From the NCBI GenBank assembly GCA_964016885.1, contig OZ024757.1, positions 7,626,001 through 7,690,000 on the forward strand: a stretch of 64,000 nucleotides of DNA, read 5' to 3'. The DNA comes from Eledone cirrhosa (Eukaryota). Below the pieces are notes generated by a model. It had not been told where the DNA came from. It saw only the letters and a program-made list of their open reading frames with translations, and did not search any database. This document shows, one piece after another, positions 25,106 to 64,000 of the stretch; the stretch's first letter is position 1; each line of letters begins with the position of its first letter. The position numbers and the translations under genes are program-made.

Positions 25106-25139
25106 CCTAGAGTGTAATATAATTATAACAATAATAATG

Positions 25140-27010: not shown

Positions 27011-27014
27011 CCAT

Positions 27015-28225: not shown

Positions 28226-28361
28226 GCGGCCAGCGCATGGGGTCCCATTTGCTCATGATAGTGAGAGTTGGGGAGGGCGAGAGAGATGGAGGCGATGACA
28301 GTGGGAGTTCAGACTTGGATCTACGTGCATATGTATGTTTACCATTATTATTATTATTATC

Positions 28362-31936: not shown

Positions 31937-32505
<569 letters not shown>

Positions 32506-32834: not shown

Positions 32835-32985
32835 GTTTCTATGTCTTTTTTTCTTCTTTTCTTATATAAATAATAAAAATCTTTACACGCACAAAACCCA
32901 GATCGTACCGTCCTGTACCGTCCTATGCCGTCGTCTGTAATCTTTTTCTTGATGTCAGCCCTTGTGGCCAACAAAGAAATCATTA
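32835..32985 (+). mobile_element. Tx1-like 3' terminal fragment with (ATT)n tail
   Basis: gtaccgtcctgtacc...gcccttgtggccaacaaagaaatc(att)n, resembles 63340-63420. Confidence 0.75.
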
Positions 32986-33006
32986 TTATTATTATTATTA
33001 TTATTA

Positions 33007-33057
33007 CAGTTGCATTTATCTTGCTTTATGTTCATACGAGTTATCACCAAGTCACAA
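33007..33057 (-). mobile_element. 50-bp 3' tip of Dong-like family B
   Basis: Identical to 38179-38229, flanked by (ATT)n. Confidence 0.85.
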
Positions 33058-33077
33058 TTATTATTATTATTATTATT

Positions 33078-36000
33078 TTTTTTTTTTTGAGTCTCAGTCA
33101 TTGATGTTAGTTAACTGGAAAGTTTGTTGAAATGAATATCAAGCCACTACCTGCAGCCTCAGATATTCAGGACGTATCGGAGGGTTCTTGCTGTTCCCAG
33201 CAAGCATGCCTTTTGAAGCGTTCCAAAAAGCGTGAAGGGGCCAATTTTCTTTAACCATCCCTGGAAACTTTTGGAGATAGTCCCTAGTGCGCCTATGACA
33301 ATCGGGATCACTTTGACTTCATGGCAGTTCCAAATCCTTTTTACCTCCCACTTTAAGTCCTGGTATCGGTTAATTTTCTCCCTCTCCTTCTCTTGCACTC
33401 TCGTGTCGAATGGGCAGGCCACATCCACAATCAGACACGATCTTTTTTCTTTGTCCACAACCACCAGGTCAGGTCTATTGTGTTCCAGTTTCTTGTCCGT
33501 CTGTATCCTAAAATCCCACAGCACCTTCACCTGATCGTTTTCTATCACCGACTCTGGCTTATGCTCATACCACTTCCCAGAATGTGGTAAGTTGTTTACT
33601 TTGCACAGGTGCCAGTGGATCACCCTGCCCATCACATCATGTCTCCAGCCCTTATAGTGAGTCTGGGCTAGGTGTTTACATTCGGATACAATGTGAGCCA
33701 CAGTCTCCTCTCTCTCTCCACAGATCCTGCACAGTGGGCTAGCCTCCTCCTTGTAAATGTGGTGTTTCAACCACTTCGTTTTGAGGGCCTGCTCCTGCGC
33801 AGCCATTAACATTCCTTCTTTAGCCTTTTTAAGGTCTTCTCTTTTCAACCAGTTCCATGTCTGTGGATCTCTAAATTCAGTTTTCTCAAAGAAGGTACTA
33901 TGAAGGGATTTTTCCTGAAGACTTCTCTTTCTCCTTGATGTTATTTCCTCCTTGGACATCCCCTGGCCTATTGTCCTCTCCTTCAGTACATTTCTGAGCA
34001 TTGGCTCCTTACTATCAGTCACGTATTTGTGTAGGTTGTTTTTCTCCATCTGAACACAGTCCTCTATGCTGACAAGACCTCTTCCACCCTCAGATCTCCT
34101 TAAGTAGAGTCTATCGACATCACTCCTCTTGTGGAACATGTTGTAGATAGTCAATAGCTTCCTAGTCTTCCTATCCATTTCTTTTTGTTCAGCAACATTC
34201 CATCTCAGAATTCCCGCACTGTACCTAATAATAGACACAGCTCGGGTATTTACTGCACTTATGGCATTCCTACTGTTCAGATGTGACTTTAATACGCTCC
34301 TTACTCTCCGAAGGTATTCACTTCTTATCAATTCCTTCATTTTTTTTGTTCTTGATGTCATCAGCCTCCAGAACGCCCAAATACTTGTATCCTTCCTCAG
34401 AGTCAATTTCCTTTATCAACTCACCTGTTGGTATCTGGATTCCGTTACTTCTGCTCAACTTACTCCTCCTCATCACAATGACTCCACACTTACTAATACC
34501 AAATTGCATACATATGTCATTGCTGAAAATACGGACAGTGTCAACAAGCACATCCAACTCCTTCTCACTCTTCCCGAAGAGCTTAAGATCGTCCATGAAG
34601 AGGAGGTGATTGATGGTAAGCCCTCCCTTTTCCAACCTGTATCCTGCTCACACTTTTCGCAGTACACTGGTCAGGGGCATCAGGGCAAGGACAAACAACA
34701 GAGGGGAGAGACTATCTCCATGGAAGATACCTCTCTTGATCTTCACGCTTCCCAAGGATTCTCCAGTTGATGTTAACTCTGTTTCCCAGGACTTCATACT
34801 TTTGCCCAACAACTGTCTGATGTTATCTGCCACCTTGAAGATCTCCAGGCTTTTGGTGATCCAAGAATGAGGCACCATGTCAAATGCCTTTTTGTAGTCT
34901 ATCCATCCCATGGCAAGACCAGTGTGTCTTCTCTTGCAATTCCTCATTACCATCTTATCAATAAGTAACTGGTCCTTTGTACCACGTGACTTCTTTCGGC
35001 ATCCTTTCTGTTCGTCCGGTAACAAGTTGTTTGTGTGGAGGTGATGGTAGATTTCCTCAGACATAATGCTTGTCAACAGTTTCCACATTACGGACAGACA
35101 TGTGATAGATCTATAGTTGGTAACATCATTACCCTTGATTCGGTCTTTCATTATCAGAACTGTGGTACCTTTTGTCAACCACTCTGGTATCTCACCTGAC
35201 ATCAAGCAGTCATTGAACATGGTTATCAGTTTCGGGTGGAGGGATGTTATGTTTTTAATCCAATACCCCTGCACACCTTCTGGGCCAGGTGATGTCCAGT
35301 TGGTTAGTTTTTTGGCCTGCCCCTTAAGAGTTTCAACTGTGATACTCAAATCAGTTTGTTGGTGTGCCTGTTCACTGATCTCCTTCTGTACTGTCTCAAT
35401 CCACACTGCCTGGTCATTATGTTTAACATCCTGCTCCCATATTCCTCTCCAGAATGTTTTAGTTTGTTCCGCCTCAGGGATCAAGTCGTTGCCTCTTTCT
35501 TTCCCTTCAAGCTGTCCAAACAGCATCTTCTGGTTGTTGTCGAACATGCGGTTCTCTCTATACTGGCTGACTCTTTTCTCGTATCGCCTGATTTTTGTAC
35601 TCTTTGCTACAATGCGTTACTTCAGTTCTTCTATGATAATATTTAGCTTTTTCCTCCGAGTTTTTTACTTTATTTCCAGTCTATTTTTAGTATCTATGTT
35701 TTTTAGTGTCCCATTCAGTAGGGACTCAAGCTTTTCAATGTCATTTCTCATTTCCCTGATTTGACCACTCAGTCGTTTCTTCCACCAAGGCTCTGCTCTT
35801 TCTTGTCTGTTGTTTCCTCTCGCTTTTATACCAAGTAGTTTCCTCACCGTATATGCTGTTGCTTTGAGGATATTGTTGCACTGATGAAGGCTCCTCGCCT
35901 CAAGGTATGGGATGACTTTGTTTACCTTAGCTGTTGTTTCTTTTAACTTTTTCCTATCTACAAATCTTAGGTTCATAGGTCTCCCACTATCATTGTTCAA

Positions 36001-38158
36001 TTCATCTACCACTAAGTTTAGGATATCTACCAAATCTTGTCCTAGCCCGTCAGCATTCATCTCCTCAGTTGCCGTATCTCTGTTCCAGGTATTATTTATC
36101 TCAGCATTCAGATCATTGTCTGTTTCGGATGGTTCCTCCGTTCTCTCGACCTCCCCACCTTCATTTCCCACTGGCTCGCTTGCCTGGCATACTCCACCCT
36201 CCATCTCCAAGCTAATCTCTCTGCTCAGTTCTTCCAGTTCCAGCTCGCTTATCCACCCATTAGTTCTTATTACCCGAGCCTGCCCGGCCAGTTTTTGTTC
36301 ATCTAATTTAAATGGACCAATCTCGTTCCAGATGTTATGCATCCTTTTCCTATAGCCTTTCTCCTTGGGGTTACTCTTCAGGTAACATTGCATAACAGTT
36401 CTATTCAATTCTTTCGTCCAGTTGGTTCTGGTCTCTTTCCTTCTTCTTCTTCCTCCGACACCAGCAGTATTTGGTTGACAGCCAGGTCCCTGCTGCTGAG
36501 TCAGGGAGCACCTGTTGGGTGAGAGTCTGTCACATGACATTCTAGTCTCCATTTCACCGTTATTCGAACTGTTTAGGTTCGACATTTAAACACTCTTATC
36601 GAGGATTGGCGAATGTATGGTTACATAACCACCGGTGAATTACTTGTCTCCGGTGGTTTCGTCACTCCACGTGACTTTTGTGTGGCATTATCACGCTGTA
36701 GACGAACCCAAATAAACAAAGAAACAGGCAGAAAAAAACCCAAAAATGAATAAGCATAAGTTTCATTGTAATGTAGTGTTTGAATGTCTGACTTAGTTTT
36801 TCCCTTCCCTTCTCTGTCCGTCCGTTTGTTTTTCTCTTCATTTTTATTTCCTTTACGTTTTTCGTTGTTGCTGTGCTGCTTTGATTTTGATTTTTTTTTT
36901 TTGATTTTGACCAGGTCATCAATTCAGTCTATTTATATATTTTGATGCCTTCCTCTTTTAGTGAGAATTCTACAATGTAGCAGGAGCTATCGGGAGAGAA
37001 TAGCGGCGGTAGTGACAATGAGGCAGCGGTAGCGGCGATTGCGGTGCTGTGCCAGCAGCAACCAGCAGGAGGTAGTGGGAGAGAATAGCGGCGGTAGCGC
37101 TAATGAGGCAGCGGCGGTGGCGATGTGGTCGTATTATTGTAGCGATGGTGTTGAAGATGGAGTAGAAATTTGAGTCGACTTGACCAGGGTTTTCATCGTG
37201 GCAGTGGTGGTAGCACTGGTGGGAAAATTATCTTTAGTGAAATTATCATTAGTCGCGTATATGTGTTGACATAAATACCTTAATATTGGAATTAAACATT
37301 TTGTGAAAACTAAAACTTGATTTTGATTATTGTTTTTTTTTTTTTTGACCGGGTCATCAATTCAATCTATTTATATATTTTGGTGTTTTCCCCTTTTAGT
37401 GAGAATTCTACAATGTAGCAGGGGGTAGCGGGAGAGAATAGCGGCGGTAGTGATATTGAGGCAGCGGCGGCGGTGGTGGTGGCGGTGCTGTGCCAGCAGC
37501 AACTAGTAGAAGGTAGTGGGAGAGAGTAGCGGCGGTAGCGATAATGAGGCAGTGGTGGTGGTGATGATGTGGTCATATTACTGTAGTGATGGTGTTGAAG
37601 TTGGAGTAGAAATTTGAGTCGACTTGACCAGAGTTTTCATCGTGGTAGTGGTGGTGGTATTGGTGGTGAAATTATCTTTAGTGAAATTATCGTTAGTTGC
37701 GTATATGTGTTGACATAAATACCTTAATATTGGAATTAAACATTTTGTTAAAACTAAAACTTGAGGCAATAGAAATAGTAATTATTATTATTATGCTGAG
37801 ATTAGTGGTGGTGGTGGTAAAATTGCCGTTATCTGGCTGTTGTGTTTAGTGTACACAGAGGGGTAATGGGGTAGGTGGTGTATCTAGTTTCTGATGTTGG
37901 TGAAATTGCTGGTATTTGGCTGTTCTATATAGTGTAGACAGAGGGGGTTTTCTTCCATTTGTAACCATTTTCTCTTTTGAATATAAAATGTATAATACAA
38001 AATTGAATATTTGAGCGATATAACAATATATTGTGGATCCGAATTTTTTGGGACTCAAGCTGGATGTTTTATGCAACATTTGTACTAAGAATTGTTATTT
38101 CACAATTGATTTAAATATGTTAAAAAATCAAAACTTACGGGAGCGATTTCTCGACCTT
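33078..38158 (-). mobile_element. R4/Dong-like RLE retrotransposon family A, full-length, frameshifted (ORF 36585 to 33159)
   Basis: ORF pieces 35665-36585, 34648-35547, 34318-34635 and 33159-34406 are collinear with the intact 1130-aa ORF; (TAA)n on both sides; ~430-bp tandem duplication in the leader. Confidence 0.92.
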
Positions 38159-38178
38159 CTATTATTATTATTATTATT

Positions 38179-40119
38179 ACAGTTGCATTTATCTTGCTTT
38201 ATGTTCATACGAGTTATCACCAAGTCACAACCAGTGACCTCAAGAGACAACAAGCTCCGCCATGTTCAAGAAAGAACATACATACTCACACATGCATCTT
38301 TGGTGTTTAGACTTGTGATGTACTTATATTGACAGAATCTTCCTTAGTATATGGGCAGTTCCCATTAGTACTCTCTTTTGTATTTCTCCTATACGCGGGT
38401 TTCCTGGGATTTGCGATAAGTAATCATTAGACCCCTTAGGTATCATTCCCAGAGCGCCTACAACCACTGGTATTGTTTTAGTACTCAATTTCCACATTTT
38501 TCCAATTTCTATCTCCAGGTCCTTATACTTGCTAAATTTTTCAAATGTTTTTATAGATACATTCTTGTCTATTGGAACAGACATATCAATTAGCAGTCAT
38601 ACCCTCTTTTGAAAGTCCTTCAATATTATATCAGGTCTATTTGCATCTATTTTTCGGTCTGTTTGGATGCTAAAGTTCCACAAGATTGAGATGTGATCTT
38701 TTTCAAGTATGGGAGGTGGTTGATGCTCCCACCAATTCTTTTGATGGGGCAGGTCAAAATGCTTACACATTATCCAATGTATGTATTGTGCAGCTCTGTC
38801 ATGCCTGTTTAGGTATTCGGTTGGAGCTATAGGACTGCACATTGAAATTATATGGTCAATGCTCTCTGGTTGTTTTTTGCATACAGGGCATAATGGGCTG
38901 CACCCATTTTTTATTATGTTGGGTTGGTAATTTTTTGTTGGCAGACACTGATCTTGTGCTGATATAATCAGTCCTTCAGTCTCCGATTTCAGTCCAGAGG
39001 ATGCCAACCACTGATGGGTTAAAGTTTTGTCAACATCAGGATTGTTAGCTCGCTCTGGGTATTTTCCATATAGAGGCTTTTCTTGCCATTTCTTAGCCAG
39101 TTTCTGTAGCAGTTCTTTCTTTGCAGTTACTTTTACTTGTTTTGCTTTTTCTGTGTTTTCCATTTCAGCAGTAAATGGGACTTCTGAAATTTGTAGTCCA
39201 TTACTGTATCTTTGTGCATCTTTTGTAATGGAATATGATCTTTTGATGCTTTCGTGTTTCAAAACGAGTTTGATCATCCAATCATGTGATTCCCTTAGAT
39301 ATGTAGATAATCCAATTGTTGCAGTTTTCAACGCAATGTCTAACTGAATTAACCCACGTCCTCCTTCTTTCCTAGGGAGATATATTCTATCTATATCTGC
39401 CTTAGGGTGATGCATTCTGTGCATGGTTAAGAATTTTCGAATTTTTGTATCGAGCCTATGGATCTCTGTGCTTGACCAGTTGATGACATTGTAACTGTAG
39501 GTTTCTACTGGTATGGCAAGCGTGTTTATGGCATCGATCCTATTCCTTGCATTCAATTCCGTTCTTAAGATTGCTCTGACTCTGCGGTAACATTCCTTCC
39601 TTATCCTTTCCCACATTGTCGAGTGCTTGATTCCGTCTCCTTCACAAACACCTAGATATTTGTAAGTTTTTTCTTGATCAAGTTCTCTTATCACGTTCCC
39701 CCGATCAAGATTAATGTCTGAACTCTTCAGCAGCTTTCCTCTGCTGAACGTTGCTTTGGCGCATTTATCTAGTCCAAACTCCATTTTAATGTCATCACTG
39801 AACTGCTCCACAGTGGATAATAGACCTTGCAATTGTTCATCATTTATTGCAAATAGTTTCAGGTCATCCATGTAGAACAGGTGATTAATGGTTTTGTCAT
39901 AGACTTTATATCCATGTTTTGTTTCATTGAGCATTTTACTTAATGGTATATGTGCGATGCAGAATAAAAGCGGTGATAAAGAGTCACCCTGAACAATTCC
40001 ACAATTAATATTAACCTCTCCAGCTTCCAGTGATTTTGTTTCACTATTCAAAAGGAGTGTCGTTTTCCATGTTTTCATACTGAATGACAAAAACCTCCTG
40101 ACAACGGGGGATATTTTGA

Positions 40120-40120
<1 letters not shown>
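38179..40120 (-). mobile_element. Dong-like family B, 5'-truncated
   Basis: QGDSLSPLLF, FYMDDLK, YKYLG, RKEGGRGL, CPVC..H..C, RHD, RPD; (TAA)n flanks. Confidence 0.92.
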
Positions 40121-40164
<44 letters not shown>

Positions 40165-40170
40165 GTTGTT

Positions 40171-41531
40171 ATTCCTTGAATCTCAGTCATTGATGTTGGT
40201 TAACTGGAAAGTCCGTTGGAATGAATATCAAGCCACTACCTGCAGCCTCAGATATTCAGGACGTATCGGAGGGTTCTTGCTGTTCCCAGCAAGCATGCCT
40301 TTTGAAGCGTTCCAAAAAGCGTGAAGGGGCTGATTTTCTTTAACCATCCCTGGAAACTTTTGGAGATAGTCCCTAGTGCGCCTATGACAATCGGGATCAC
40401 TTTGACTTCATGGCAGTTCCAAATCCTTTTTACCTCCCACTTTAGGTCCTGGTATCGGTTAATTTTCTCCCTCTCCTTCTCTTGCACTCTCGTGTCGAAT
40501 GGGCAGGCCACATCCACAATCAGACACGATCTTTTTTCTTTGTCCACAACCACCAGGTCAGGTCTATTGTGTTCCAGTTTCTTGTCCGTCTGTATCCTAA
40601 AATCCCACAGCACCTTCACCTGATCGTTCTCCGTCACCGCCTCTGGCCTATGCTCATACCATTTCTCAGAATGTGGTAAATTGTTTACTTTGCACAGGTG
40701 CCAGTGGATCACCCTGCCCATCACATCATGTCTCCAGCCCTTATAGTGGGTCTGGGCTAGGTGTTTACACTCGGATACAATGTGAGCCACAGTCTCCTCT
40801 CTCTCTCCACAGATCCTGCAGAGTGTGCTAGCCTCCTCCTTGTAAACATGGTGCTTCAACCACTTCGTTTTGAGGGCCTGCTCCTGCGCAGCCATTAGCA
40901 TTCATTCTGTAGCCTTTTTGAGGTCTCCTCTTCTCAACCAGTTCCATGTCTGTGGATCTGTAAATTCAGTTTTCTCAAAGGAAGGTACTATGAAGGGATT
41001 TTCCCTGAAGGTTGCTTTTTCTCCTTGATGTTATTTCCTCCTTGGACATCCCCTGGCCTATTGTCCTCTCCTTCAGTACAGTTCTGAGCATTGGCTCCTT
41101 ACTATCAGTCACGTATTTGTATAGGTTGTTTTTCTCCATCTGAACACTGTCCTCTATGCTGATAAGACCTCTTCCACCCTCAGATCTCCTTAGGTAGAGT
41201 CTATCGACATCACTCCTCTTGTGGAACATGTTGTAGATAGTCAATAGCTTCCTAGTCTTCCTATCCATTTCTTTTTGTTCAGCAACATTCCATCTCAGAA
41301 TTCCCGCACTGTACCTAATAATAGACACAGCTCGGGAATTTACTGCGCTTATGGCATTTCTGCTGTTCAGATGTGACTTCAATACGCTCCTTATTCTCCG
41401 AATGTATTCAGTTCTTAACAATTCCTTCATTTTTTTGTTCTTTATGCCATCAGCCTCCAGAACTCCCAAATACTTGTATCCTTCCTCAGAGTCAATTTCC
41501 TTTATCATTTCACCTGTTGGTATCTGGATTC

Positions 41532-41533
<2 letters not shown>
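40171..41533 (-). mobile_element. Dong-like family A, 5'-truncated
   Basis: Matches the 3' 1.36 kb of A; truncated at gtatctggattcc. Confidence 0.92.
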
Positions 41534-41574
<41 letters not shown>

Positions 41575-41576
<2 letters not shown>

Positions 41577-43506
41577 AGTTGCATTTATCTTGCTTTATGT
41601 TCATACGAGTTATCACCAAGTCACAACCAGTGCCCGCAAGAGACAACAAGGTACGCCATGTTCAAGAAAGAACATACATACTCACACATGCATCTTTAGT
41701 GTTTAGACTTGTGATGTACTTATATTGACAGAATCTTCCTTAGTATATGGGCAGTTCCCATTAGTACTCTCTTTTGTATTTCTCCTATACGCGGGTTTCC
41801 TGGGATTTGCCATAAGTAATCATTAGACCCCTTAGGTATCATTCCGAGAGCGCCTACAACTACTGGTATTCTTTTAGTTCTCAATTTCCACATTTTTCCA
41901 ATTTCTATCTCCAGGTCCTTATACTTGCTCAATTTTTAAAATGTTTTTATAGATACATTCTTGTCTATTGGAACAGACATATCAATTAGCAGGCATACCC
42001 TCTTTTTAAAGTCCTTCAATATTATATCAGGTCTATTTGCATCTATTTTTCGGTCTGTATGGATGCTAAAGTTCCACAAGATTGAGATGTGATCTTTTTC
42101 AAGTATGGGAGGTGGTTGATGCTCCCACCAATTCTTTTGATGGGGCAGGTCAAAATGCTTACACATTATCCAATGTATGTATTGTGCAGCTCTGTCATGC
42201 CTGTTTAGGTATTTGGTTGGAGCTATAGGACTGCACATTGAAATTATATGGTCAATGCTCTCTGGTTGTTTTTTGCATACACGGCATAATGGGCTGCACC
42301 CATTTTTTATTATGTTGGCTTAGTAATTTTTTGTTGGTAATTTGTGCTGATATAATCAGTCCTTCAGTCTCCGATTTCAGTCCAGAGGATGCCAACCACT
42401 GATGGGTTAAAGTTTTGTCAACATCAGGATTGTTAGCTCGCTCTGCGTATTTTCCATATAGAGGCTTTTCTTGCCATTTCTTAGCCAGTTTCTGTAGCAG
42501 TTCTTTCTTTGCAGTTACTTTTACCTGCTTTGCTTTTTCTGTGTTTTCCATTTCACCAGTAAATGGGACTTCTGAAATTTGTAGTGCATTACTGTATCTT
42601 TGTGCATCTTTTGTAATGGAATATGATCTTTTAATGCTTTCGTGTTTCAAAACGAGTTTGATCATCCAATCATGTGATTCCCTTAGATATGTAGATAATC
42701 CAATTGTTGCAGTTTTCAACGCAATGTCTAACTGGATTAACCCACGTCCTCCTTCTTTCCTAGGGAGGTATATTCTATCTATATCTGCCTTATGGTGATG
42801 ATTCTGTGCATGGTTAAGAATTTTCGAATTTTTGTATCGAGCCTACGGATCTCTGTGCTTGACCAGTTGATGACATTGTAACTGTAGGTTACTACTGGTA
42901 TGGCAAGCGTGTTTATGGCATCGATCCTATTCCTTGCATTCAATTCCGTTCTTAAGATTGTTCTTACTCTGCCGTAACATTCCTTCCTTATCCTTTCCCA
43001 CATTGTCGAGTGCTTGATTCCGTCTCCTTCACAAACACCTAGATATTTGTAAGTTTTTTCTTGATCAAGTTCTCTTATCATGTTCCCCCGATCAAGATTA
43101 ATGTCTGAACTCTTCAGCAGCTTTCCTCTGGTGAACGTTGCTTTGGCGCATTTATCTAGTCCAAACTCCATTTTAATGTCATCACTGAACTGCTCCACAG
43201 TGGATAATAGACCTTGCAATTGTTCATCATTTATTGCAAATAGTTTCAGGTCATCCATGTAGAACAGGTGATTAATGGTTTTGTCATAGACTTTATATCC
43301 ATGTTTTGTTTCATTGAGCATTTTACTTAATGGTATATGTGCGATGCAGAATAAAAGCGGTGATAAAGAGTCACCCTGAAAAATTCCACAATTAATATTA
43401 ACCTCTCCAGCTTCCAGTGATTTTGTTTCACTATTCAAAAGGAGTGTCGTTTTCCATGTTTTCATACTGAATGACAAAAACCTCCTGACAACGGGGGATA
43501 TTTTGA

Positions 43507-43507
<1 letters not shown>
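41575..43507 (-). mobile_element. Dong-like family B, 5'-truncated at the same base as 38179-40120
   Basis: Shared end acaacgggggatattttgaa. Confidence 0.92.
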
Positions 43508-43545
<38 letters not shown>

Positions 43546-43552
43546 GTTGTTA

Positions 43553-44913
43553 TTCCTTGAATCTCAGTCATTGATGTTGGTTAACTGGAAAGTCCGTTGG
43601 AATGAATATCAAGCCACTACCTGCAGCCTCAGATATTCAGGACGTATCGGAGGGTTCTTGCTGTTCCCAGCAAGCATGCCTTTTGAAGCGTTCCAAAATG
43701 CGTGAAGGGGCCGATTTTCTTTAACCATCCCTGGAAACTTTTGGAGATAGTCCCTAGTGCGCCTATGACAATCGGGATCACTTTGACTTCATGGCAGTTC
43801 CAAATCCTTTTTACCTCCCACTTTAGGTCCTGGTATCGGTTAATTTTCTCCCTCTCCTTCTCTTGCACTCTCGTGTCGAATGGGCAGGCCACATCCACAA
43901 TCAGACACGATCTTTTTTCTTTGTCCACAACCACCAGGTCAGGTCTATTGTGTTCCAGTTTCTTGTCCGTCTGTATCCTAAAATCCCACAGCACCTTCAC
44001 CTGATCGTTCTCCGTCACCGCCTCTGGCCTATGCTCATACCATTTCTCAGAATGTGGTAAATTGTTTACTTTGCACAGGTGCCAGTGGATCACCCTGCCC
44101 ATCACATCATGTCTCCAGCCCTTATAGTGGGTCTGGGCTAGGTGTTTACACTCGGATACAATGTGAGCCACAGTCTCCTCTCTCTCTCCACAGATCCTGC
44201 AGAGTGTGCTAGCCTCCTCCTTGTAAACATGGTGCTTCAACCACTTCGTTTTGAGGGCCTGCTCCTGCGAAGCCATTAGCATTCATTCTGTAGCCTTTTT
44301 GAGGTCTCCTCTTCTCAACCAGTTCCATGTCTGTGGATCTGTAAATTCAGTTTTCTCAAAGGAAGGTACTATGAAGGGATTTTCCCTGAAGGCTGCTTTT
44401 TCTCCTTGATGTTATTTCCTCCTTGGACATCCCCTGGCCTACTGTCCCCTCCTTCAGTACAGTTCTGAGCATTGGCTCCTTACTATCAGTCACGTATTTG
44501 TATAGGTTGTTTTTCTCCATCTGAACACTGTCCTCTATGCTGATAAGACCTCTTCCACCCTCAGATCTCCTTAGGTAGAGTCTATCGACATCACTCCTCT
44601 TGTGGAACATGTTGTAGATAGTCAATAGCTTCCTAGTCTTCCTATCCATTTCTTTTTGTTCAGCAACATTCCATCTCAGAATTCCCGCACTGTACCTAAT
44701 AATAGACACAGCTCGGGAATTTACTGCGCTTATGGCATTTCTGCTGTTCAGATGTGACTTCAATACGCTCCTTATTCTCCGAATGTATTCAGTTCTTAAC
44801 AATTCCTTCATTTTTTTGTTCTTTATGCCATCAGCCTCCAGAACTCCCAAATACTTGTATCCTTCCTCAGAGTCAATTTCCTTTATCATTTCACCTGTTG
44901 GTATCTGGATTCC
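43553..44913 (-). mobile_element. Dong-like family A, 5'-truncated at the same base as 40171-41533
   Basis: Same truncation point and the same private frameshift (tcaaaggaagg). Confidence 0.92.
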
Positions 44914-44948
44914 ATTATTATTATTATTATTATTATTGTTATTGTTAT

Positions 44949-49473: not shown

Positions 49474-49535
<62 letters not shown>

Positions 49536-49537
<2 letters not shown>

Positions 49538-52500: not shown

Positions 52501-53495
52501 TAGAGATGATTTAAATCAGTAATGTTTAGTTTGTTTGTGATGATAATGTTTTTGAGAATTATGTTAGTCTTGTGTATTATCTTTTGGTTCTGTTTGGAGT
52601 TCTGGATCTTAGGGAGGGTGTCTCGTTGCCCCATGTCAGATTCTTTCATTTTCATCCATTCGATCATAATTTCATCCTTCAAGTTGGCAAGTTCATTCTC
52701 ATTCATTTCTTTATCATTTACGATCTCATTATTTTCATTTGGAGTTTCATCCTGAGCATGCACTCCCTCCACTTTTTCGCTCCTTTCTTTAATTTGTTCT
52801 GTTGCCAGTGATTCCGCCCCAACTCTGGGATTCGAAGTGTTACAGTTTACCTCGTTTTCACTGACACGTGCTTCATTTTCCCTTCGCTGACTTTGTGCTA
52901 CTAGCTTGATCTGATCAATTTCTATATCAGTTAGTAACTTTTTTCTTACAATATTTCTTCGTATATTGGCTAGTTTGTTACTGTCAATATAGCCTCTGTT
53001 TTCGGGATGTTTCTTTTTTCAGTTGATATATGTTTGTTCTGTATTCGATGTATTTGATGGGTAGTACATGGCAGTGTAGAAAGCCTCAAGGACTTCTTTA
53101 TTATCTTCCCTTGACCATTTTTCTCTCTTTTTCTTTGGATTTCTTGGTGGTGAGCATGGAGGGCCAACAGTAGGAGTATTCCGGTTATGGGAGGTCTCCA
53201 GCTCCGAAGTGATGGGAAGGTTTGAACCATTAGCTGATTTTTCGAACCCAGTCTGGTTCCTCTCTGAGGGACGCGGCCCTTTTTTACCCGGGTGACGGCC
53301 GATGCGGTATGAGATTTTATCATTAGACATTTACTTTATTTTGTCGCGTTTTATCCTTATCCGCCAAGGGGTAATCATTTCGTGTTACCACTTCTAGAAC
53401 GAGTGTCAACCAAGACTAGAGGGGTCGTTCTCCCCTAGAGACATGGCTATTCCCCGCCGGCCGCCATCCCGGTATTTCTTGGTCACGGGGTTTTC
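49536..53495 (-). mobile_element. Dong-like family B, full-length, frameshifted (ORF about 53330 to 49681)
   Basis: ORF pieces 53019-53330, 52149-52772, 50748-52106, 49897-50688, 49681-49893 with the same domain order as A but clearly diverged protein. Confidence 0.9.
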
Positions 53496-53589
53496 TTTTT
53501 TTTTTTTTTTTTTTTTTAATTAAATTGTTATTATCATGAGTGGTTCCTTAATGTGAGCATTGCGTGGCTTAAGAATGAAATTATTAATA

Positions 53590-54360
53590 ATTGTCTCCAC
53601 TCCAGGCACAAGGCCAGCAATCACCCAGTGCATTACAATAATATAATATACTTTTTGTTGTAGTTGGCTGTTATTGTTGTTGGCTATGCCGGTGGTGGTG
53701 CCGGGGCTTTTTATATTGTTGGTGAGGAAGGGGTGAGCCAGCAGTCCCATAATTGTTGATGTAGACGTTTGGCCGTGGCAAGGTCACCAAGTCAGTCTAT
53801 TTATATCTTTTGCTAGCCTCTCTCTTGTCTAGTGCTACCGTCACCTTCCCTTTTCTCTCTCAAGTTAACAGGGGAATAGTGTCAGTAGCATTGAATGAGT
53901 GGTGGCGGCGATGATGGATGTGGTGGGGTGGTGGCAGCGGTGGTGTTGTGGTTACTGATATAGTATCTATGAGTTTGTGTTCGTATGTTTAATATATATT
54001 TTCATTATATTTTGTGTTGACATATTCCCGTAAAATTTGAATTAAACATTTTTTAAAATTTGAGACAATAATACTAGTAATTATTATTATGATGCTGGTG
54101 ATATTATATTTAGTGTGATGGGATAGGTAGTGTATCAAGTGTATCAAGTTTCTGGTGTAGGTGAAATTGAAATTGCCGCTGTTCTATATAGTGTAGACAG
54201 AGGGTGTTTTGTTCCATTTATAACCATTTTCTTTTTTGAATACAAAATATATAATACAAAATTGAATATTTGAGCGATACAACAATATAATATGGATTCG
54301 AAACTTTATGGGACCTCATTCGGTGCCTTTATGCAACATTTGTGCTAAGAATAGTTCTTT
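53590..54360 (-). mobile_element. Copy of the family-A 5' leader module followed by a SINE-type 3' tail
   Basis: 54180-54355 closely matches 37921-38100 and 49190-49390; 53600-53635 is the SINE tail gcactgggtgattgctggccttgtgcc. Confidence 0.7.
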
Positions 54361-54364
54361 CTTA

Positions 54365-54502
<138 letters not shown>

Positions 54503-54710
54503 GGCGACCTACGTAGTAAATCGTATCATCGTGAGCTCCGCAAAGGTTTGTTATTTCCGTTTGTTAAAAATTGTCATTTATGGAAATTTTTTATTGTTAA
54601 CTGTTTATAAGCGCACATACATTGTTTTCCGAAAAGGACACCCAAAAAGATTGGGGCCTTGTGCCCAAAATTTAAACTTTTATTATTATCAAACAATTTC
54701 TTTGAAAAAA

Positions 54711-56683
54711 ATGGCTAATTCACCTCTGCACCAAGCAGCTGAAAGCCTTCCTCACAAAATAACACCTCACACCGACACCACCATTGTAAATGTTACTACG
54801 TTTGCCAACACAAAAAAAAATATAAGCACTAGCAATATTTTAAATTTGTCTCAGGCAGACATACATTTCCCGCCATTACCAATGACTGCAGGTGTTAAAG
54901 CCTCCACCACCACCACCACCACCACCATCGCGACAACCACCACTACCACCACCACCGCGACAACAGAAACAAAAGAAGAAAAAAATAAATTAACTCGTGA
55001 TGTCGAAATGAAATCAAGCAAAATGGACTCTTCCCCACCAAAGACGACTGACGTTACCACCACCACAACTGAAACTAAAATTAATATTAACGATAGCAAC
55101 ACCAACAACAATGACATTATAACCCCCCCCCCCTCAGTTTCGCCAGAGTAGCAAAACAATTCGAAGCATTTACGGTAACTCAGGAGGATTTAGAAAATGC
55201 CTAACAAATGGTAAAGAAAGATGGGTACAGGGTCAACCTCACCCCCCACCTAATAAAATGGAGCATCGGCGCCTATGCACCGTGTCGTATAGAACAATAA
55301 ATGTAAAATCGCGCCGAGTTGAACGGGCATCCGAGTCCCAAATCCAAAAAGCTTTGGGACATGTGTGGGCAAGAAAAACCCACATCAGACGTGGGCAAAA
55401 GTATGGAACAGTGGACGTGTTCTTTGAAACACCAGAGGAGGCTAGAGAACACTCCATGGCCCCATTAAGAAGTGACGACTTCACACTCGTCCCAAGCTAT
55501 TGTGGCCAGAGACTCGTAAAGATCAGGGTGACCCACGTTCCACCGGCCATCGAAATTCCCTGGCTAATAGAAGCCAACACAAAGATAATAGCAATAGCAA
55601 AAGAAAAGCAGGAGAACTGGTGCGGATCTGGGATGGAGCTCCTGATCCAAGCGGACCAAAAAAGCATTGAGGAGATCCCAGAGGTAATAGACCTCACTGA
55701 CGGCAGCCACCTCACGGTAATTGGCGAGGGCAGAAGACCTAGGTGTGTCGTTTGTGGTGAAGGAACCCACCTAAGGGCTTTCTGCCCTCAGGCTAAAAGG
55801 TTGAGGCCACCTCTCCAACCCACCCCAGTGACACAACCATCAACACCACCAGTAGCAGAGATGGCAGCAACAACTGTAGCAGCAACAACAGAAGCAACTA
55901 TAACAGCAACAACCCCAGCAACAGTAGAAAAACCAACACCACCACCACCACCAGCAAAACCAACACCACCACCACCCAACGCTTCAGAACTAGCACCAGC
56001 GCCTACACCATCCACCACGCCACAACCAAAACTAACGGCTGTGGAGGATTTTCCACTCCCCGGCCTATCACAACTGGAGACAGATTGTGACGACGAGGAG
56101 TGGGAAACGTATCCGGAAAAAAAAAAGAAACCAAAAAAGAAAAAATTCTCTTCCTTCCCCCTCCAAAAACAAAATACAGAGGGAAACAAATAAATTAAGA
56201 AACAAAAAAGTTAGGACAGATATGCCACCATCCACACCAGCATCACCAACCCCATCAACCCAAACACCAACACCATCACCATCATTAACCCCAACACCAC
56301 CATCACCTACACCACAAAAGTCATCAAAATGCGAAACAGAAACAAACGCACAACAAACGCAAACAAAACAGAACAACCAAAACGATACACACTACACAGC
56401 ATTAAATTTGAACAACAAGCAATTATTACACTACATCTAACACAACACCAGCATCACAGAAAAAGACAACAAAACAACCCCAAAATTCACACCACCTCCA
56501 CACATACAAATCACTCGCATCACACAGAAAACGTACATGACACTAAAACAAAAATTCCCCAAAGACATCGGAGACTTCCGACAAGCACTCTCCAGGAGGA
56601 TTTATAAGGACATCCTTCCTGAGGAGGCCACAACCAGTGAAAAGGATGGAAAAACCGTCCTTCCCCTACGAGAAGTAAGGTAA
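54711..56683 (+). pseudogene. Tx1-like ORF1 (RRM-like region, CX2CX4HX4C knuckle, Thr/Pro-rich), with stops and frameshifts
   Basis: MANSPLH start; RRGQKYGTVDVFFETPEEA; CVVCGEGTHLRAFC. Confidence 0.8.
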
Positions 56684-56717
56684 GTGGTCTTTCCCATCTT
56701 TTCCACTCCTTTTCAAC

Positions 56718-59115
56718 ATGACCTCACTCAGAATAGGCAGCATAAATGCGCGTGGCTTGGGGTCGTCATGGAAGCAGGGCCACCTGCTCAACGACCTCTG
56801 GTCACTAAACATAGATGTAGTGGCCATCAGCGAGACCAGAATCTCAGAAGCACAGGCTTTCGCACCGATCTTCGGCGGCTACGATGTGTACGCATCTCCA
56901 GCCGCCCGGGATCGGGGGGAGGAGTTGCTGTGCTTTTTCGGAGAGGTTTGGATCTTGCCATACGTGCCATCTTCCTGGACACAGAAGGTAAGTTGGTGGT
57001 GCTGGACGTGACCAGCGGAGACGGCCAAGCTTTCAGGTTAGTGGCCGTCTATGCCCCGACAGGAGCAGGGCGGCGTGATTTCTTCCGGCGTCTGGAGACC
57101 TTTCTTGGAACGTCCCGCTCTTTAGTGTTAGTGGGCGACTGGAACGGGATCTTAGATGCACGCTGGGATTGTGTGGGATTAGTGGATAGGGAAGGAGGGT
57201 GCAAGTGTCTCACCAACCTGCTCAGACGTTTTGAACTGTCTGACAGGTACCGAATGGATTTCCCGAATGTACCAATGTGGACTTGCACAAATCGCATAGG
57301 GTCATCCAGATCATATCTAGATAGAGTATTTTGTAGGGAAATAGATAGGTCTAGCATAGGCTGTCCACAATTCAAAATAGTCAGCTACACGGACCACGAA
57401 TTCGTGATCTGTGTGCTTGACTTAGATAGGCTTCATAGGCGAGGACCCGGCTACTGGAAGCTAAACGCGTCCTTACCATCGCGCAAGGCCTACAGAGACC
57501 GGATTAGCGAACTAGTTAAGCGGGCGTTGACGGGGGCCATCGTCAACATCAAGTGGTGGTTTGCTCTGAAAAGAGCAATTAGAATAGAGTCCATTAGGTT
57601 TAGTAAGACTTTAGCAATAGAGAAAAATAGAGCAGAGGGAGAATTAGTTAGAAAATTAGATGAGGCGCTTAGCAAAGGCATCGCGACCGACGTACTTGCG
57701 GCGAAATTGGCCCTTGACCAATTCTTCAATGCAAAGCACGAAGGCTGCGTTGTCAGAGCTAGGGTGCGTGCTCTCAGACACGAGGGGACGAAAGCCGTTC
57801 AATGGGCCCGAGTGGCGGAGGCACGTCGTGGCAACAAAGCCACGATCCGGTCTTTGGTGGACCACGACGGGCGCATGCTACTCGATCCCGGGCAAATGTG
57901 TGAAGCTTTTCAGCGACACTTCGCTCAACTGTTCGGGGGCAGTGGCGGGCCGGATCGAGGGATGGACTTTAGTGTCTACCTCGACGGACTGCCGCGGCTT
58001 TCGTCCACTGAGGCGATAACAACCACTGAAGTACGGGATGCAATGACTAGTTGCACAAGGGGTAAATCGCCTGGTTTGGATGGTCTGCCCTATGAACTTT
58101 ACGTACAAATGCCAAACTTGTTCGGAGGCCTCTTGGCGGACGTCTACTGCAACTGGCAACAGAACGGGAGAAATCCCTGCTCTGTGAGCCGAGGAGCGGT
58201 GGCGCTGCTGAGAAAGGATCCGAACAAGGGGGATAACAAAGATATTTTTAGGCCCATAACTCTGCTAAACACAGAGTTCAAGATTTTGGCCAAGGTGCTA
58301 GCAAAGAGGTTGGCGCTTGTCGTTGGTGGTCTGGTGGAAGAGGCACAGACATGCGCCATTCCCGACAGATCCATCCACGACAACCTCCACCTCATGCAAT
58401 ACATCGTAGAGAGGGTAGCTAGGGAACCTGGCACGGGTGGGTCTTTGATCAATTTAGATCAGTCGAAAGCCTTCGATAGGGTCGACCATCGTTACCTAGA
58501 GGCAGTCTTGAGGGCGGCTGGTTTTGGGCCCGTCTTCAGAGGCTGGATCGCTGCCATGCACAACAACATCTGCTCTGTGGTGAGAGTGAACGGTCACCTT
58601 TCGGAACCGTTCAACATCATGCGCTCGGTCCGCCAAGGATGTCCCCTCTCGTCCCTCTTGTACGTATTGACTCTCGAGCCATTACTGCACAAACTGGAGA
58701 CGTTGAGGGGGATCCCGCGCGAACTAGGATGCGGAAGATCCGTGTCAGCATATGCCGACGATGTCACCGTAGGGGTGTCGAACGCCAAACACATCGAGGC
58801 GATCGGCACTACACTAAGAGAATACGAAGCGGTGACAGGAGCAATGATCAACCAGGAAAAGTCAGTGGGCCTGCAGCTCGGCACCTGGAGAGGCAGGTCC
58901 ATGCCGTCCAACAGCGTCGTCGGGCGCTGGACAGACGGACCGGTTAAATTGCTAGGGGTCTAGTTCGGTCCAGACCTCCAGACGGACAAAAACTGGGACG
59001 AGGTGACGAGCAGGGTGGCTTCTCTCACCCAGAAATGGGCCGAGAGGAAGCTATGCCTGAAAGGTCGAGCGGTGGTGGCTAACGCGTACATCGCGTCCGT
59101 CATCTACTACCGCCT
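56718..59115 (+). pseudogene. Tx1-like ORF2: APE endonuclease + RT; frameshift near 56905, stop at 58963
   Basis: SINARGL, SET, GGGVAVL, VYAP, GDWN, SYLDRV, YTDH, WKLNAS, KSPGLDGLP, RPITLLN, LDQSKAFDRVDH, RQGCPLS, AYADD. Confidence 0.92.
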
Positions 59116-59117
59116 AC

Positions 59118-60112
59118 TAGTGTTTAGACTTGTGATGTACTTATATTGACAGAATCTTCCTTAGTATATGGGCAGTTCCCATTAGTACTATCTTTTGTAT
59201 TTCTCCTATACGCGGGTTTCCTGGGATTTGCGATAATTAATCATTAGTCCCCTTTGGTATCATTCCCAGAGCGCCTACAACCACTGGTATTGTTTTAGTT
59301 CTCAATTTCCACATTTTTCCAATTTCTATCTCCATGTCCTTATACTTGCTCAATTTTTCAAATGTTTTTATAGATACATTCTTGTCTATTGGAACAGACA
59401 TATCAATTAACAGGCATACCCTCTTTTGGAAGTCCTTCAATATTATATCAGGTCTATTTGCATCTATTTTTCAGTCTGTTTGGATGCTAAAGTTCCACAA
59501 GATTGAGATGTGATCGTTTTCAAGTATGGGAGGTGGTTGATGCTCCCACCAATTCTTTTGATTGGGAAGGTCAAAATGCTTACACATTATACAATGTATG
59601 TATTGTGCAGCTCTGTCATGCCTGTTTAGGTATTCGGTTGGAGCTATAGGACTGCACATTGAAATTATATGGTCAATGGTCTCTGGTTGTTTTTTGCATA
59701 CACGGCATAATGGGCTGCACCCATTTTTTATTATGTTGGCTTGGTAATTTTTTGTTGGCAGTCACTGATCTTGTGCTGATATAATCAGTCCTTCAGTCTC
59801 CGATTTCAGTCCAGAGGATGCCAACCACTGATGGGTTAAAGTGTTGTCAACATCAGGATTGTTAGCTCGCTCTGGGTATTTTCCATACAGAGGCTTTTCT
59901 TGCCATTTCTTAGCCAGTTTCTGTAGCAGTTCTTTCTTTGCAGTTACTTTTACCTGCTTTGCTTTTTCTGTGTTTTCCATTTCAGCAGTAAATGGGACTT
60001 CTGAAATTTGTAGTCCATTACTGTATCTTTGTGCATCTTTTGTAATGGAATATGATCTTTTGATGCTTTCGTGTTTCAAAACGAGTTTGATCATCCAATC
60101 ATGTGATTCCCT
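59118..60112 (-). mobile_element. Dong-like family B fragment lacking its last ~120 bp
   Basis: Matches 38300-39295; fused tail-to-tail to the broken Tx1. Confidence 0.9.
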
Positions 60113-60130
60113 TATTATTATTATTATTAT

Positions 60131-60370
60131 TTGCATTTATCTTACTTTATGTTTATACGAGTTATCACCAAGTCACAACCAGTGACCTCAAGAGACAACA
60201 AGGTCCGCCATGTTCAAGAAAGAACATACATATTCACACATGCATCCTTAGTGTTTAGACTTGTGATGTACTTATATTGACAGGATCTTCCTTAATATAT
60301 GGGCAGTTCCCATTAGTACTATCTTTTGTATTTCTCCTATACGCGGGTTTCCTGGGATTTGCGATAAGTA

Positions 60371-60372
<2 letters not shown>
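60131..60372 (-). mobile_element. Dong-like family B, short 3' fragment
   Basis: Matches 38183-38420; (TAA)n flanks. Confidence 0.9.
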
Positions 60373-60406
<34 letters not shown>

Positions 60407-63400
60407 GAATGCTATAGTTGACGGAGGCTCGGCTCTGTAAGGTATTGCACATTTTGAACGCTATAACAATTGTAAATTGTTAAAACTTTTACCAACTTGT
60501 AGACAAAAACACCCTCCTCCTCGTGAGACGGGTCTTTCTGCCTGTTATTTGGCCCTTCGGGGTTAAATAACTGCTTATTAGGGTTTTGTGCCCAATATTT
60601 AATTTAAACAAAAAAAAACAACATGGCTACGAAAAAGAAATTTCATAGGTCACTCCCACTCATTCCGACTTCTTCTTGCTCAATCGTCACTACAGCAGAG
60701 AGAAGATTGTCTCTCTCCCTCCCTTCTTTAAATGTGTCTCTCTCCCTCCCTTCTCTTTCGCAAGCGGCGACAGAAAAGAAAAGTCTCGTGCAAAGCGTGC
60801 AAGATTTCTCCACGACAACAACGACGACGAAACAGGTGTGCGGGAAATACGAAAACCCATTTCATTCGTCTGACGTCAGGAATAATAGCAGTAGCAGCCG
60901 TAATAACAACAGCAACAGTGACAATGAAAACAACAGCAGCAGCCGCAACAGCATCAGCAGCAGCATAAACAACAACAGCATTAGCAGCAGCAACAACAAC
61001 AACAACCACAGCAACAGCGGCGGCGGCAGTAGTCGTAGTACCTGCAGCAACAACAAAAGTAACAGCAGCTCAAAACTCAAAACGCCAACTAACATAAGAC
61101 TGCTAAAAATAGCACAGAAACAATACACAAACACTAAAACGAAATTCCCCAACGCAGTTGGTAATTTCAGAGACCTAGGAGGTACTATCAACCGAAGAGT
61201 ATATTCGGACATACTCATAGAAGAGCCGATGACCAGTAGAAGGGACGATTCAACGGTCCCTTCACCAGACGATCAAGTGAAAAGGGATGTAAAATCCATC
61301 CCTCCTCTACGAAAAGTACGGTAAGAGGTCTTTCTCATCTTTTCCACTCTATTTTAAACATGACCTCACTCAGAATAGGCAGCATAAATGCGCGTGGCCT
61401 GGGGTCGTCATGGAAGCAGGTTCACCTGCTCAACGACCTCAGGTTATTAAACATAGATGTAGTAGCTAGGGAACCTGGCACGGTTGTGTCCTTGATCAAT
61501 TTAGATCACTCGAAAGCTTTCGATAGGGTCGACCATCGTTACCTAGCGGCAGTCCTGATGGCGGCTGACTTTGGGCCCGTCTTCAGAGGCTGGATCACTG
61601 CCATGCACAGCGACATCTGCTCTGTGGTGAGAGTGAACGGTCACCTGTCGGAACCGTTCAACATCATGCGCTCGGTCCGCCAAGGATGTCCCCTCTCGTC
61701 CCTCCTGTACGTAGTGACTCTCGAGTCATTACTGCACAAACTGGAGACGTTGAGGGGCATCCCGCGCGAACTAGGATGCGGAAGATCCGTGTCAGCATAT
61801 GCGAACGATGTCACCGTAGTGGTGTCGAACGCCAAACACATCGAGGCGATCGGCACTACACTAAGAGAATACGAAGCGGTGACAGGAGCAATGATCAACC
61901 AGGAAAAGTCAGTGGGCCTGCAGCTCGGCACCTGGAGAGGCAGGTCCATGCCGTCCAACAGCGTCGTCGGACGTTGGACGGACGGACCGGTTCAATTGAT
62001 AGGGGTCTGGTTCGGTCCGGACCTCCAGACGGACAAAAACTGGGACGAGGTGACGAGCAGGGTGGCTTCTCTCACACAGAAATGGGCGGAGAGGAAGGTA
62101 TCCCTTAAAGGTCGAGCGGAGGTGGCTAACGCGTACATCGCGTCTGTCATCTGCTACCGCCTGACCGTCGTACCTTGTCCTAAGCCTCGCCTGACTGCGC
62201 TGGAGCGTTTGCTCTTTCGCTTTTTGTGGAAGGGACGCGCTCCGATGGTCAGGCGGTCCATCTGTTGTCAACACCCGCTACGTGGAGGGCTGGGCATGCC
62301 GTGGCTGATGATGCGCAGGCACGCGCTCAGGCTACGACATCTCCACCTCCTCCTCGACGGTGATCAGGTGTGGTCGCCGTTTGCTAGACACGTTTTTCCC
62401 CAGCTCCTTTCCTTGACGGAGCTGCAATCCTGGGTCAAGCGAATACCGAGAGGGAGCGCCTGGAGACTGGAATCTCTTCAGGCGCTCACACCCCTCGACC
62501 AATCGGGCAATGTGATCGGTGGAAACTCCACCTCGGCGTTCTATAGAGGATTAGTGGAGGGGAAGAGCGACGACGTACTTGGGGAACCTCTAGGCGTCGA
62601 CGAAAATTAACTAGCCAATCTCTTCGGAAGAACTTTCGGGCCAGGGCCTATGGACAACTTCCAGAAATCTCTGGCCAGGCAGTGCTACCGAGGAGCCTTG
62701 CCAGTTTGGGATAAACTCTACAGGCATGGAGGTGCCGTCAGCCGGGCATGTCCAAGATGCGCGCAGGGCGACGAAACCGTCCTGCATGCACTCGTCCAAT
62801 GTCCGAAAATTGCTGACTTGTGGGTTTATGTCGAACACCTGCTGTCGCGTTTAGGACGGATCCGGCTATCATCTGAGTCCATCGTAAGGATTGCCCCGCT
62901 CTCCTATTTTAGCCGGGAAGGGCAGACAGTTTTTATCTGTCTGGTGGCCATGGCGAAAGAGGAAGTATGGTGGACACGTTTGAAAGGGCTGAAGACGAGC
63001 ACTTACCTCTTCGGTGATGCTCTGATTGACTTTTTCAAATTTCATTTGAAAAGGAAAATCAGAGTAGAGAGGGAAGTGCTCTCTTCCCAGCATTTTGTTG
63101 AAAGATGGGTGAGAGAAGCAAGAATGGCCCGAGTGAATGGGCCTACTCTGAGTATATATCTGTAAATTAAAGGTGGAAAACTGGGAGACGGCACTTGCCT
63201 TGGTGGTCAGGGTCACTGTGGCTTTTTATTGGGATTTCTCCACAAATGTCCCTCCGAAGTCTCCCCCCTATTGGGGAATTTTTCATTTTTATTTTTGGTT
63301 ACATCCTCTGTTTTTGTTTTTTACACGCAGAAATGCCCATTTGTACCGTCCTGTATTGTCCTGCACTGTCCTTAATGTCTACTTTATGTAAAACCTTGTG

Positions 63401-63415
63401 GTTAATAAATAAATC
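60407..63415 (+). mobile_element. Tx1-like LINE, internally deleted derivative with both termini
   Basis: Short low-complexity ORF1 60623-61324; ORF2 61360-63165 lacks APE and early RT, keeps later RT and CPRC..HALVQC; (ATT)n on both sides. Confidence 0.9.
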
Positions 63416-63440
63416 ATTATTATTATTATTATTATTGTTT

Positions 63441-64000
63441 TTATTCCTTGAATCTCAGTTGGTTAACTGGAAAGTCCGTTGGAATGAATATCAAGCCACT
63501 ACCTGCAGCCTCAGATATTCAGGACGTATCGGAGGGTTCTTGCTGTTCCCAGCAAGCATGCCTTTTGAAGCGTTCCAAAAAGCGTGAAGGGGCCGATTTT
63601 CTTTAACCATCCCTGGAAACTTTTGGAGATAGTCCCCAGTGCGCCTATGACAATCGGGATCACTTTGACTTCATGGCAGTTCCAAATCCTTTTCACCTCC
63701 CACTTTAGGTCCTGGTATCGGTTAATTTTCTCCTTCTCCTTCTCTTGCACTCTCGTGTCGAATGGGCAGGCCACATCCACAATCAGACACGATCTTTTTT
63801 CTTTGTCCACAACCACCAGGTCAGGTCTATTGTGTTCCAGTTTCTTGTCCGTCTGTATCCTAAAATCCCACAGCACCTTCACCTGATCGTTCTCCGTCAC
63901 CGCCTCTGGCCTATGCTCATACCATTTCTCAGAATGTGGTAAATTGTTCACTTTGCACAGGTGCCAGTGGATCACCCTGCCCATCACATCGTGTCTCCAG
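63441..64000 (-). mobile_element. Dong-like family A 3' end, cut by the window
   Basis: Same RLE C-terminus and 3' UTR as the other A copies. Confidence 0.92.

Follow-up and report, generated by a model that had tools for sequence, protein, structure and literature searches.

Two lineages of long interspersed nuclear elements (LINEs), Dong and Tx1, include members that insert into simple repeats. In this study, a 64,000-nucleotide stretch of the Eledone cirrhosa genome (the window; assembly GCA_964016885.1, contig OZ024757.1, positions 7,626,001 to 7,690,000) was analyzed, which carries from position 32882 to its end a nest of Dong-like and Tx1-like LINE pieces separated by ATT tracts. Dong elements (Bombyx mori Dong, DongAg, the snail DongBg, the ostracod Dong and the octopus Dong-R4) resemble the Dong-like pieces in having a single open reading frame (ORF) with reverse transcriptase (RT) and a C-terminal restriction-like endonuclease (RLE), no N-terminal zinc finger, and (TAA)n flanks on the sense strand. 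The target of Dong is (TAA)n in most insects, molluscs and cnidarians, and a divergent N-terminal Myb/SANT-like domain has been ascribed to the R4/Dong clade (PMC7998251). A snail Dong is listed in PMC3812793, and a 5' ribozyme of the hepatitis delta virus (HDV) type, not known to be universal, is carried by B. mori Dong (PMC3774820). In Octopus vulgaris, Dong-R4 occurs in large numbers and has been active recently, and both Dong-R4 and L1-Tx1 are active in octopus (PMC13282606, PMC9115989, PMC8967140). The present locus differs from these in that two families of only ~35% identity share the same tracts and that one of them, family A, is preceded by a leader of 0.9-1.5 kb.

Kibi at (TC)n, Koshi at (TTC)n and the crocodilian Tx1 elements at (TTCC)n/(TTTC)n are, like the Tx1-like copies studied here, two-ORF elements with an apurinic/apyrimidinic endonuclease (APE) that are tied to a microsatellite. 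In such families the target repeat flanks more than 20% of copies genome-wide, and tandem insertions and a short interspersed nuclear element (SINE) sharing a Tx1 target are described in the same source (PMC4494074). The repeat of the present copies, unlike theirs, is (ATT)n, the element's own tail, and the preference looks like one for a short ATTAT motif. Convergence of an RLE element and a Tx1 APE element on one target, with tandem insertions, is known from Utopia and Keno in U2 snRNA genes (PMC4640811). There, however, the two share the 3' flank and the orientation, whereas here they are oppositely oriented, the target used by one kind being likely supplied by the other. In crocodilians SINEU shares the target preference of Tx1-Mar, with tandem insertions around the target-site duplication (TSD). 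The target there is a Mariner transposon, whereas the SINE studied here is of the tRNA type, with a 3' tail like that of Tx1 and with TSDs that start with ATTAT. The accessible parts of PMC3747384, PMC4758252 and PMC9004415 held nothing bearing on this nest, and neither a Tx1 with a preference for ATT nor one that uses the same repeat as Dong on the opposite strand was found described in a literature search that mostly excluded subscription papers, supplements and Repbase entries. Most ingredients of the nest are already known, and it is a variant of known target-sharing.

Our favored explanation, which we regard as reasonably probable, is that this mixed nest grew from an old Tx1-like ATT tail, and that one repeat is nicked on its TTA strand by two Dong-like families and on its TAA strand by ATT-tailed Tx1-like elements, hence the opposite facing of the two kinds.

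Composition of the nest

By self-alignment, Pfam and tblastn, 14 LINE pieces were identified in the nest, including five of family A, six of family B and three Tx1-like pieces (Table 1). All 11 RLE-type pieces (A and B) were on the minus strand and all three Tx1-like pieces on the plus strand, and no RT ORF was broken by the insertion of another element, as an earlier preliminary description of this DNA had stated on each point. Its statement that nearly all pieces are separated by ATT was also borne out, with ATT present at 12 of the 13 internal junctions. Eleven of these were ATT tracts of 6-21 units (one with an extra T run), one was compound, consisting of poly-T, a leader of ~870 bp plus a SINE, and (TTC)20(TTA)27, and only the junction T1|B4 had no ATT. 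The 12 junction tracts held 143 units in total, which fits the earlier proposal that insertions regenerate their target. In all, ATT tracts made up 459 of the 31119 bp of the nest (1.5%). Runs of at least four units after position 32900 comprised 13 of ATT (plus) and none of TAA (minus), compared with 5 and 1 to the left of that position. Inside the nest, but outside any junction tract, the minus strand carried a fragment of a SINE whose tail is of the ATT type (53536-53636).

The nest is real, but its description as one microsatellite was somewhat overstated. No ATT tract was present to the left of T0, the leftmost piece, so that the array opens at a Tx1 tail, and it is broken by three leaders of 0.9-1.5 kb. 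The right end of the nest falls beyond the window, family A piece A5 running off at 64000.

Table 1. Positions of the nest pieces and of control copies outside the nest
Feature	Position	Strand	Remarks
T0, 3'-terminal fragment, older Tx1-like subfamily; ATT tail is left edge of nest	32882-32981	+	76% identity to T2 3' end; 5' flank not ATT
B0, family B 3' end, 51 bp	33006-33056	-	
A1, family A body, full-length, ORF in three pieces	33078-36700	-	dN/dS 0.31 against A4
A1 5' leader with internal 444-bp duplication	36701-38159	-	Starts at TAA tract; joins ORF without an intervening TAA run
B1, family B, 5'-truncated	38178-40119	-	
A2, family A, 5'-truncated	40165-41532	-	
B2, B3/B1 mosaic, crossover 43131-43211	41575-43506	-	Informative sites and permutations
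A3, duplicate of A2, same truncation point	43546-44913	-	6 differences in 1368 bp
A4, full-length family A, sole intact ORF	44938-48560	-	1141-codon frame: RT, CCHC, PD..D..K endonuclease
A4 5' leader, homologous to A1 leader	48561-49473	-	70-79% identity
B3, full-length family B, ORF broken	49537-53490	-	~35% amino-acid identity to A
Third leader copy (~53760-54358), SINE 3' fragment (~53536-53636) and A-rich run before B3	53491-54358	-	73-85% identity to A1 leader; SINE match
(TTC)20(TTA)27 tract, 5' flank of T1	54359-54500	+	
T1, Tx1-like: 5' untranslated region (UTR), broken ORF1, APE-RT ORF2; 3' part deleted	54501-59115	+	Domains; reads of other copies continue into absent part
B4, family B piece without 3' ~120 bp, joined to T1 without ATT	59116-60111	-	
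B5, family B 3' end, 242 bp	60130-60371	-	
T2, Tx1-like, ATT at both ends, 1.6-kb internal deletion, 5' UTR/ORF1 unlike those of T1	60405-63415	+	
A5, family A 3' part, running off window	63437-64000	-	
ATT-tailed SINE (control outside nest)	16884-17090	+	16-bp TSD starting ATTAT
Similar SINE copies	~8930-9115 and ~13830-14015	-	
Tx1-like copy with 5' inversion (control outside nest)	28533-28987	-	3' end abuts ATT tract in Dong orientation

In A4 the unbroken frame contained RVT_1, a CX2CX8HX4C knuckle and a C-terminal RPD..D..K motif, and its best solved relatives were R2 proteins, with the endonuclease stretch included in the alignment. Family B matched family A along the full RT-CCHC-endonuclease length. 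Among 71 full-length proteins (A4 plus 70 relatives, 1050-1260 aa), not one showed a zinc-finger pattern within its first 250 aa. What these proteins shared at the N-terminus was a conserved block marked by W56, W86 and W111, for which there was no Pfam match at E values up to 5. The 3' end was kept in 10 of the 11 A and B pieces, all 10 being followed by TAA repeats on the sense strand, and TAA also preceded all seven 5'-truncated pieces, in agreement with the literature and with the earlier assignment of (TAA)n as the Dong target. The ratio of nonsynonymous to synonymous substitution rates (dN/dS) was 0.20-0.31 among A copies, and the value of 0.31 for A1 and A4, obtained over 1138 codons, indicated purifying selection and therefore separate active lineages. 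No HDV-like ribozyme, such as that of B. mori Dong, was detected at the 5' ends by Rfam or by our own strict descriptor, which had no positive control; none was among the nine sub-threshold Rfam matches in 24000-64000. The 3' motif of family B had no match in viral contigs. By architecture and TAA flanks, A and B appear to fit the R4/Dong clade, their relatives bearing no clade names. Since the asymmetric (TAA)n target fixes the direction of insertion, the uniform orientation of all 11 pieces was expected and needs no new explanation.

The ORF2 of T1 contained Exo_endo_phos (APE), RVT_1 and zf-RVT by Pfam. Its best solved relative was L1 ORF2p and its closest named relative an Argonauta hians protein (55% identity). 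A CCHC knuckle was present in ORF1, which was RRM-like by its atlas neighbours; these were mostly molluscan, with zf-CCHC and in some cases RRM. We take T0, T1 and T2 to be Tx1-like from their architecture, their relatives including no named Tx1 reference. With an RLE motif aligning to R2 in A4 and an APE domain in T1, the presence of two unrelated endonuclease types, as first described, was supported. The RT regions of T1 and T2 were 95% identical, and their 5' UTR/ORF1 starts (54501-54720 and 60405-60630) looked unrelated. In both UTRs a motif resembling the SINE/Tx1 3' end was observed shortly upstream of the ORF1 start codon.

Tx1-like elements, SINEs and strand choice

An ATT tail was found on three of the four Tx1-like 3' ends in the window. 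Both of the intact Tx1 5' ends, those of T1 and T2, started at long ATT tracts (27 units at T1 and 11 at T2), and these were the only two among five Tx1-like copies in the window with ATT at the 5' side, both within the nest. The other three (T0, 25139-26835 and 28533-28987) belonged to older subfamilies (72-79% identity) with disturbed ends. The copy at 28533-28987 had a twin-priming layout, in which only 40 bp of the 3' end lie on the minus strand and the part upstream is inverted onto the plus strand; it carried no ATT tail of its own.

The SINEs with ATT tails offered a further view of strand choice. Among 11 copies listed, two without a 3' tail were excluded and nine were scored. An ATT-type direct repeat was present at the 5' junction in eight of these and no repeat in the ninth. 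In the three copies located in unique DNA, the TSDs were clean (8, 11 and 16 bp) and all started with ATTAT, a motif that occurred in 6.4% of random 20-nt flanks. In the standard geometry of target-primed reverse transcription, the start of the TSD locates the first nick. TSDs starting with ATTAT would therefore place that nick on the strand reading ATAAT (the TAA strand), with which the RNA tail is able to pair, whereas Dong must nick the other strand. The last 40 nt of the SINE resembled Tx1 ends, no more than 16 of 1000 shuffles attaining the score in 15 of 16 pairs, and scored below shuffles against the ends of A and B, which makes Tx1 a plausible partner of the SINE. The use of the opposite strand by the APE machinery thus has fair but local sequence evidence. 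The earlier proposal that the two endonucleases nick opposite strands is supported in this modified form, as a preference for the short motif ATTAT and not as microsatellite specificity. A SINE-only miniature of the nest was also observed at 19760-20253, where three ATT-tailed SINEs were arranged head to tail and an ATT run lay at or beside the start of every copy.

Growth of the nest and competing explanations

The 5' truncation point was shared by B1 and B2, and likewise by A2 and A3, the latter two being 99.56% identical (6 differences in 1368 sites, 0.44%). Among 44 informative sites of B2, 30 of 31 on the left were B3-like and 12 of 13 on the right B1-like, a pattern as extreme as none of 500 permutations, with the switch at 43131-43211. 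B2 differed from these parents at 10 of 1588 sites in its left, B3-like part and at 1 of 341 in its right, B1-like part (0.3-0.6%). The shared truncation points, the A2/A3 identity and the mosaic indicated that B2 and A3 represent one duplication. The 14 pieces thus reduce to ~12 insertions, and the at least 13 independent ones of the preliminary description were rejected. A pure assembly duplicate was also rejected, owing to the mosaic pattern and the divergence. One unequal crossover between B3 and B1 would explain both B2 and A3, provided that, as we infer, A4 was inserted later between A3 and B3. Of the exchange between families that the landing pad was earlier said to favor, only exchange within B was found, that between families being suggested by the leader alone. 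At T1|B4, the 3' part of T1 and the last ~120 bp of B4 were absent. Raw reads of other copies ran from 59054-59115 into 62149-62175 (123-134 reads per joint), so that this joint most likely arose by local deletion; an insertion junction was rejected on the lack of ATT and on these reads, which continue into the part absent from T1.

With T0's tail as the first tract, a Tx1 tail was probably the seed of the nest. Tx1-type RNAs would end in (ATT)n, so that their insertion leaves a tract, to which A and B would home like known Dong elements, the asymmetric target setting their orientation. Each A or B insertion would split a tract, which would then regrow by duplication, tail addition or slippage. 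The APE machinery would prefer ATTAT, probably aided by base-pairing between the nicked strand and the RNA tail, and long tracts would thus draw APE elements in one orientation without strict microsatellite specificity. The unequal B3 x B1 crossover would have duplicated the B+A unit, followed by the insertion of A4 between A3 and B3 and by a later deletion fusing T1 to B4.

Several observations weigh against this explanation. No ATT was found 5' of T0 or of the copies at 25139-26835 and 28533-28987, and the last of these abuts the ATT tail of a SINE in the Dong orientation; only two Tx1 5' ends were informative. Five of the eight SINE direct repeats sit in ATT runs, where TSD and tail are indistinguishable, and the partner of the SINE could be another APE LINE, such as RTE. 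The founding tract could predate T0. In a metagenome scan, which returned 80 loci of distant relatives (25-41% identity), an RLE neighbour or C-terminus was found at none of the 80 and no ATT flank was informative. Whether Tx1-like flanks and orientations are random, a question put by the preliminary description, had a divided answer in the window: T1 and T2 lie at ATT, but the three older copies do not and one of them is Dong-oriented at an ATT tract. The claim that the Tx1-like elements are strictly microsatellite-specific found no support in these copies.

Such specificity is central to one alternative, in which T1 and T2 are truly (ATT)n-specific Tx1 elements, like Kibi and Koshi, and the nest grew in a host microsatellite by independent insertions only. 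The long tracts at both intact Tx1 5' ends agree with it, and microsatellite-specific Tx1 lineages exist (PMC4494074). The read data were also considered here. Part of the stretch was contained in nine public runs from five studies, and four runs were mapped on 54471-64000, with repeat flanks skipped. The families were covered in all 30 bins in three of the four, and none of the 24 loose read ends listed, out of more than 7600, was at a Tx1 5' junction. In run X2, one collapsed contig of 443 letters (depth 160) carried the T1 5' end and stopped 16-22 letters beyond the boundary, the sequence of which was not displayed. This is a weak hint, in line with a repeat flank common to the copies. This alternative is nevertheless unlikely, as the B2-A3 unit is a recombination product, no tract lies left of T0, the SINE TSDs in unique DNA need ATTAT only, and the three older Tx1 copies lack 5' ATT. 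Those same three copies out of five, and T0 fully, would suit a scenario in which only Dong targets the repeat, while Tx1 inserts without preference, its ATT tail merely seeding tracts and alone accounting for the plus orientation. We consider this quite improbable, because it leaves unexplained the ATT directly 5' of both T1 and T2 (~1.5% each by chance) and, if Tx1 is the partner, the SINE TSDs starting with ATTAT.

The array might also be mainly a degenerate tandem repeat or an assembly artefact, in which the ~1-kb leader is a repeat unit of the host that brings its own ATT tract and segmental duplication has multiplied the elements. Three leader copies with 70-85% identity, leaders more diverged than bodies, and one proven duplication (B2-A3) are in line with this. 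However, A1 and A4 diverged under purifying selection (dN/dS 0.31, 1138 codons), B0, B1, B4 and B5 differ in truncation points, and the duplicated unit is mosaic and 0.3-0.6% divergent, unlike a simple assembly copy. It is therefore the least credible of the explanations, and very unlikely.

Leaders, surroundings and implications

The three related leaders, located 5' of A1, A4 and B3, each started at a tract, and no TAA run was present between leader and ORF in family A. Between A1 and A4, leader windows were 72-87% identical compared with 92-97% for the body. The first 250 nt of the leaders followed the same plan as the T1 and T2 5' ends, comprising ~200 AT-rich bases, an A run, ATGG and low-complexity frames. 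The alignments of T1 with the A1 and A4 leaders were colinear, start codon on start codon, and scored above all 300 shuffles (z 3.5 and 4.5); the T2-A4 score was reached by 1 of 300. No significance was found for T2-A1 (13 of 300 shuffles reaching the score), T1-T2 (31), T1 with the leader upstream of B3 (82) or T2 with the latter (233), and the reverse-complement control of T1-A1 was close to the real score (114 vs 123). At the protein level, comparison of the leader with Tx1 ORF1 gave low-complexity matches only, and two short leader peptides had no homologues. A TATA-like stretch followed by an A-rich run was kept in the leaders (36881-37764, 48840-48870 and 53781-53826), doubled in A1 by the 444-bp duplication.

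From this weak resemblance, it is possible that the leader of family A is a captured Tx1-type 5' end. A wider scheme combines two-clade feedback with a between-clade recombination site. Tx1 elements and SINEs would write (ATT)n and enter it from one strand and Dong from the other, and family A would have captured a Tx1-type 5' UTR and decayed ORF1 start as a promoter-bearing leader, replacing read-through plus ribozyme. This scheme is tentative and, in our view, rather doubtful. If true, an APE-clade 5' end would have been fixed on an RLE-clade body, a module exchange across the deepest LINE split.

Other features were observed to the left of the nest. A decayed RLE-type LINE fragment on the plus strand (26836-28340), which we take to be CRE-like by its motifs, and the Tx1-like copy at 25139-26835 are arranged head to head. 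After the fragment come ATT, a SINE, more ATT and the 3' end of a Tx1. Another RT fragment (99-746, plus strand) was ~25% identical to both A and T1 proteins. A large inverted duplication at 4117-13382, with arms of ~4.5 kb and 92-98% identity, contained frames of 190-390 codons without Pfam match, and an imperfect palindrome of ~420 bp with arms 77% identical was located at 24461-24878. Directly left of the nest, a palindromic element resembling a miniature inverted-repeat transposable element (31598-31944) and its partial copy (32651-32841) flank a tandem array of 57-66 bp units and (TA)n.

Without confirmation, both genome-wide and of the leader capture, the nest is a tidy example of known Dong targeting. 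If the proposed two-strand use of the repeat were true genome-wide, it would explain octopod genomes rich in ATT repeats and LINE clusters, with one clade making the target for another and both sparing each other's genes, and it would offer a pair of unrelated endonucleases acting on one three-letter repeat for tests of strand choice.

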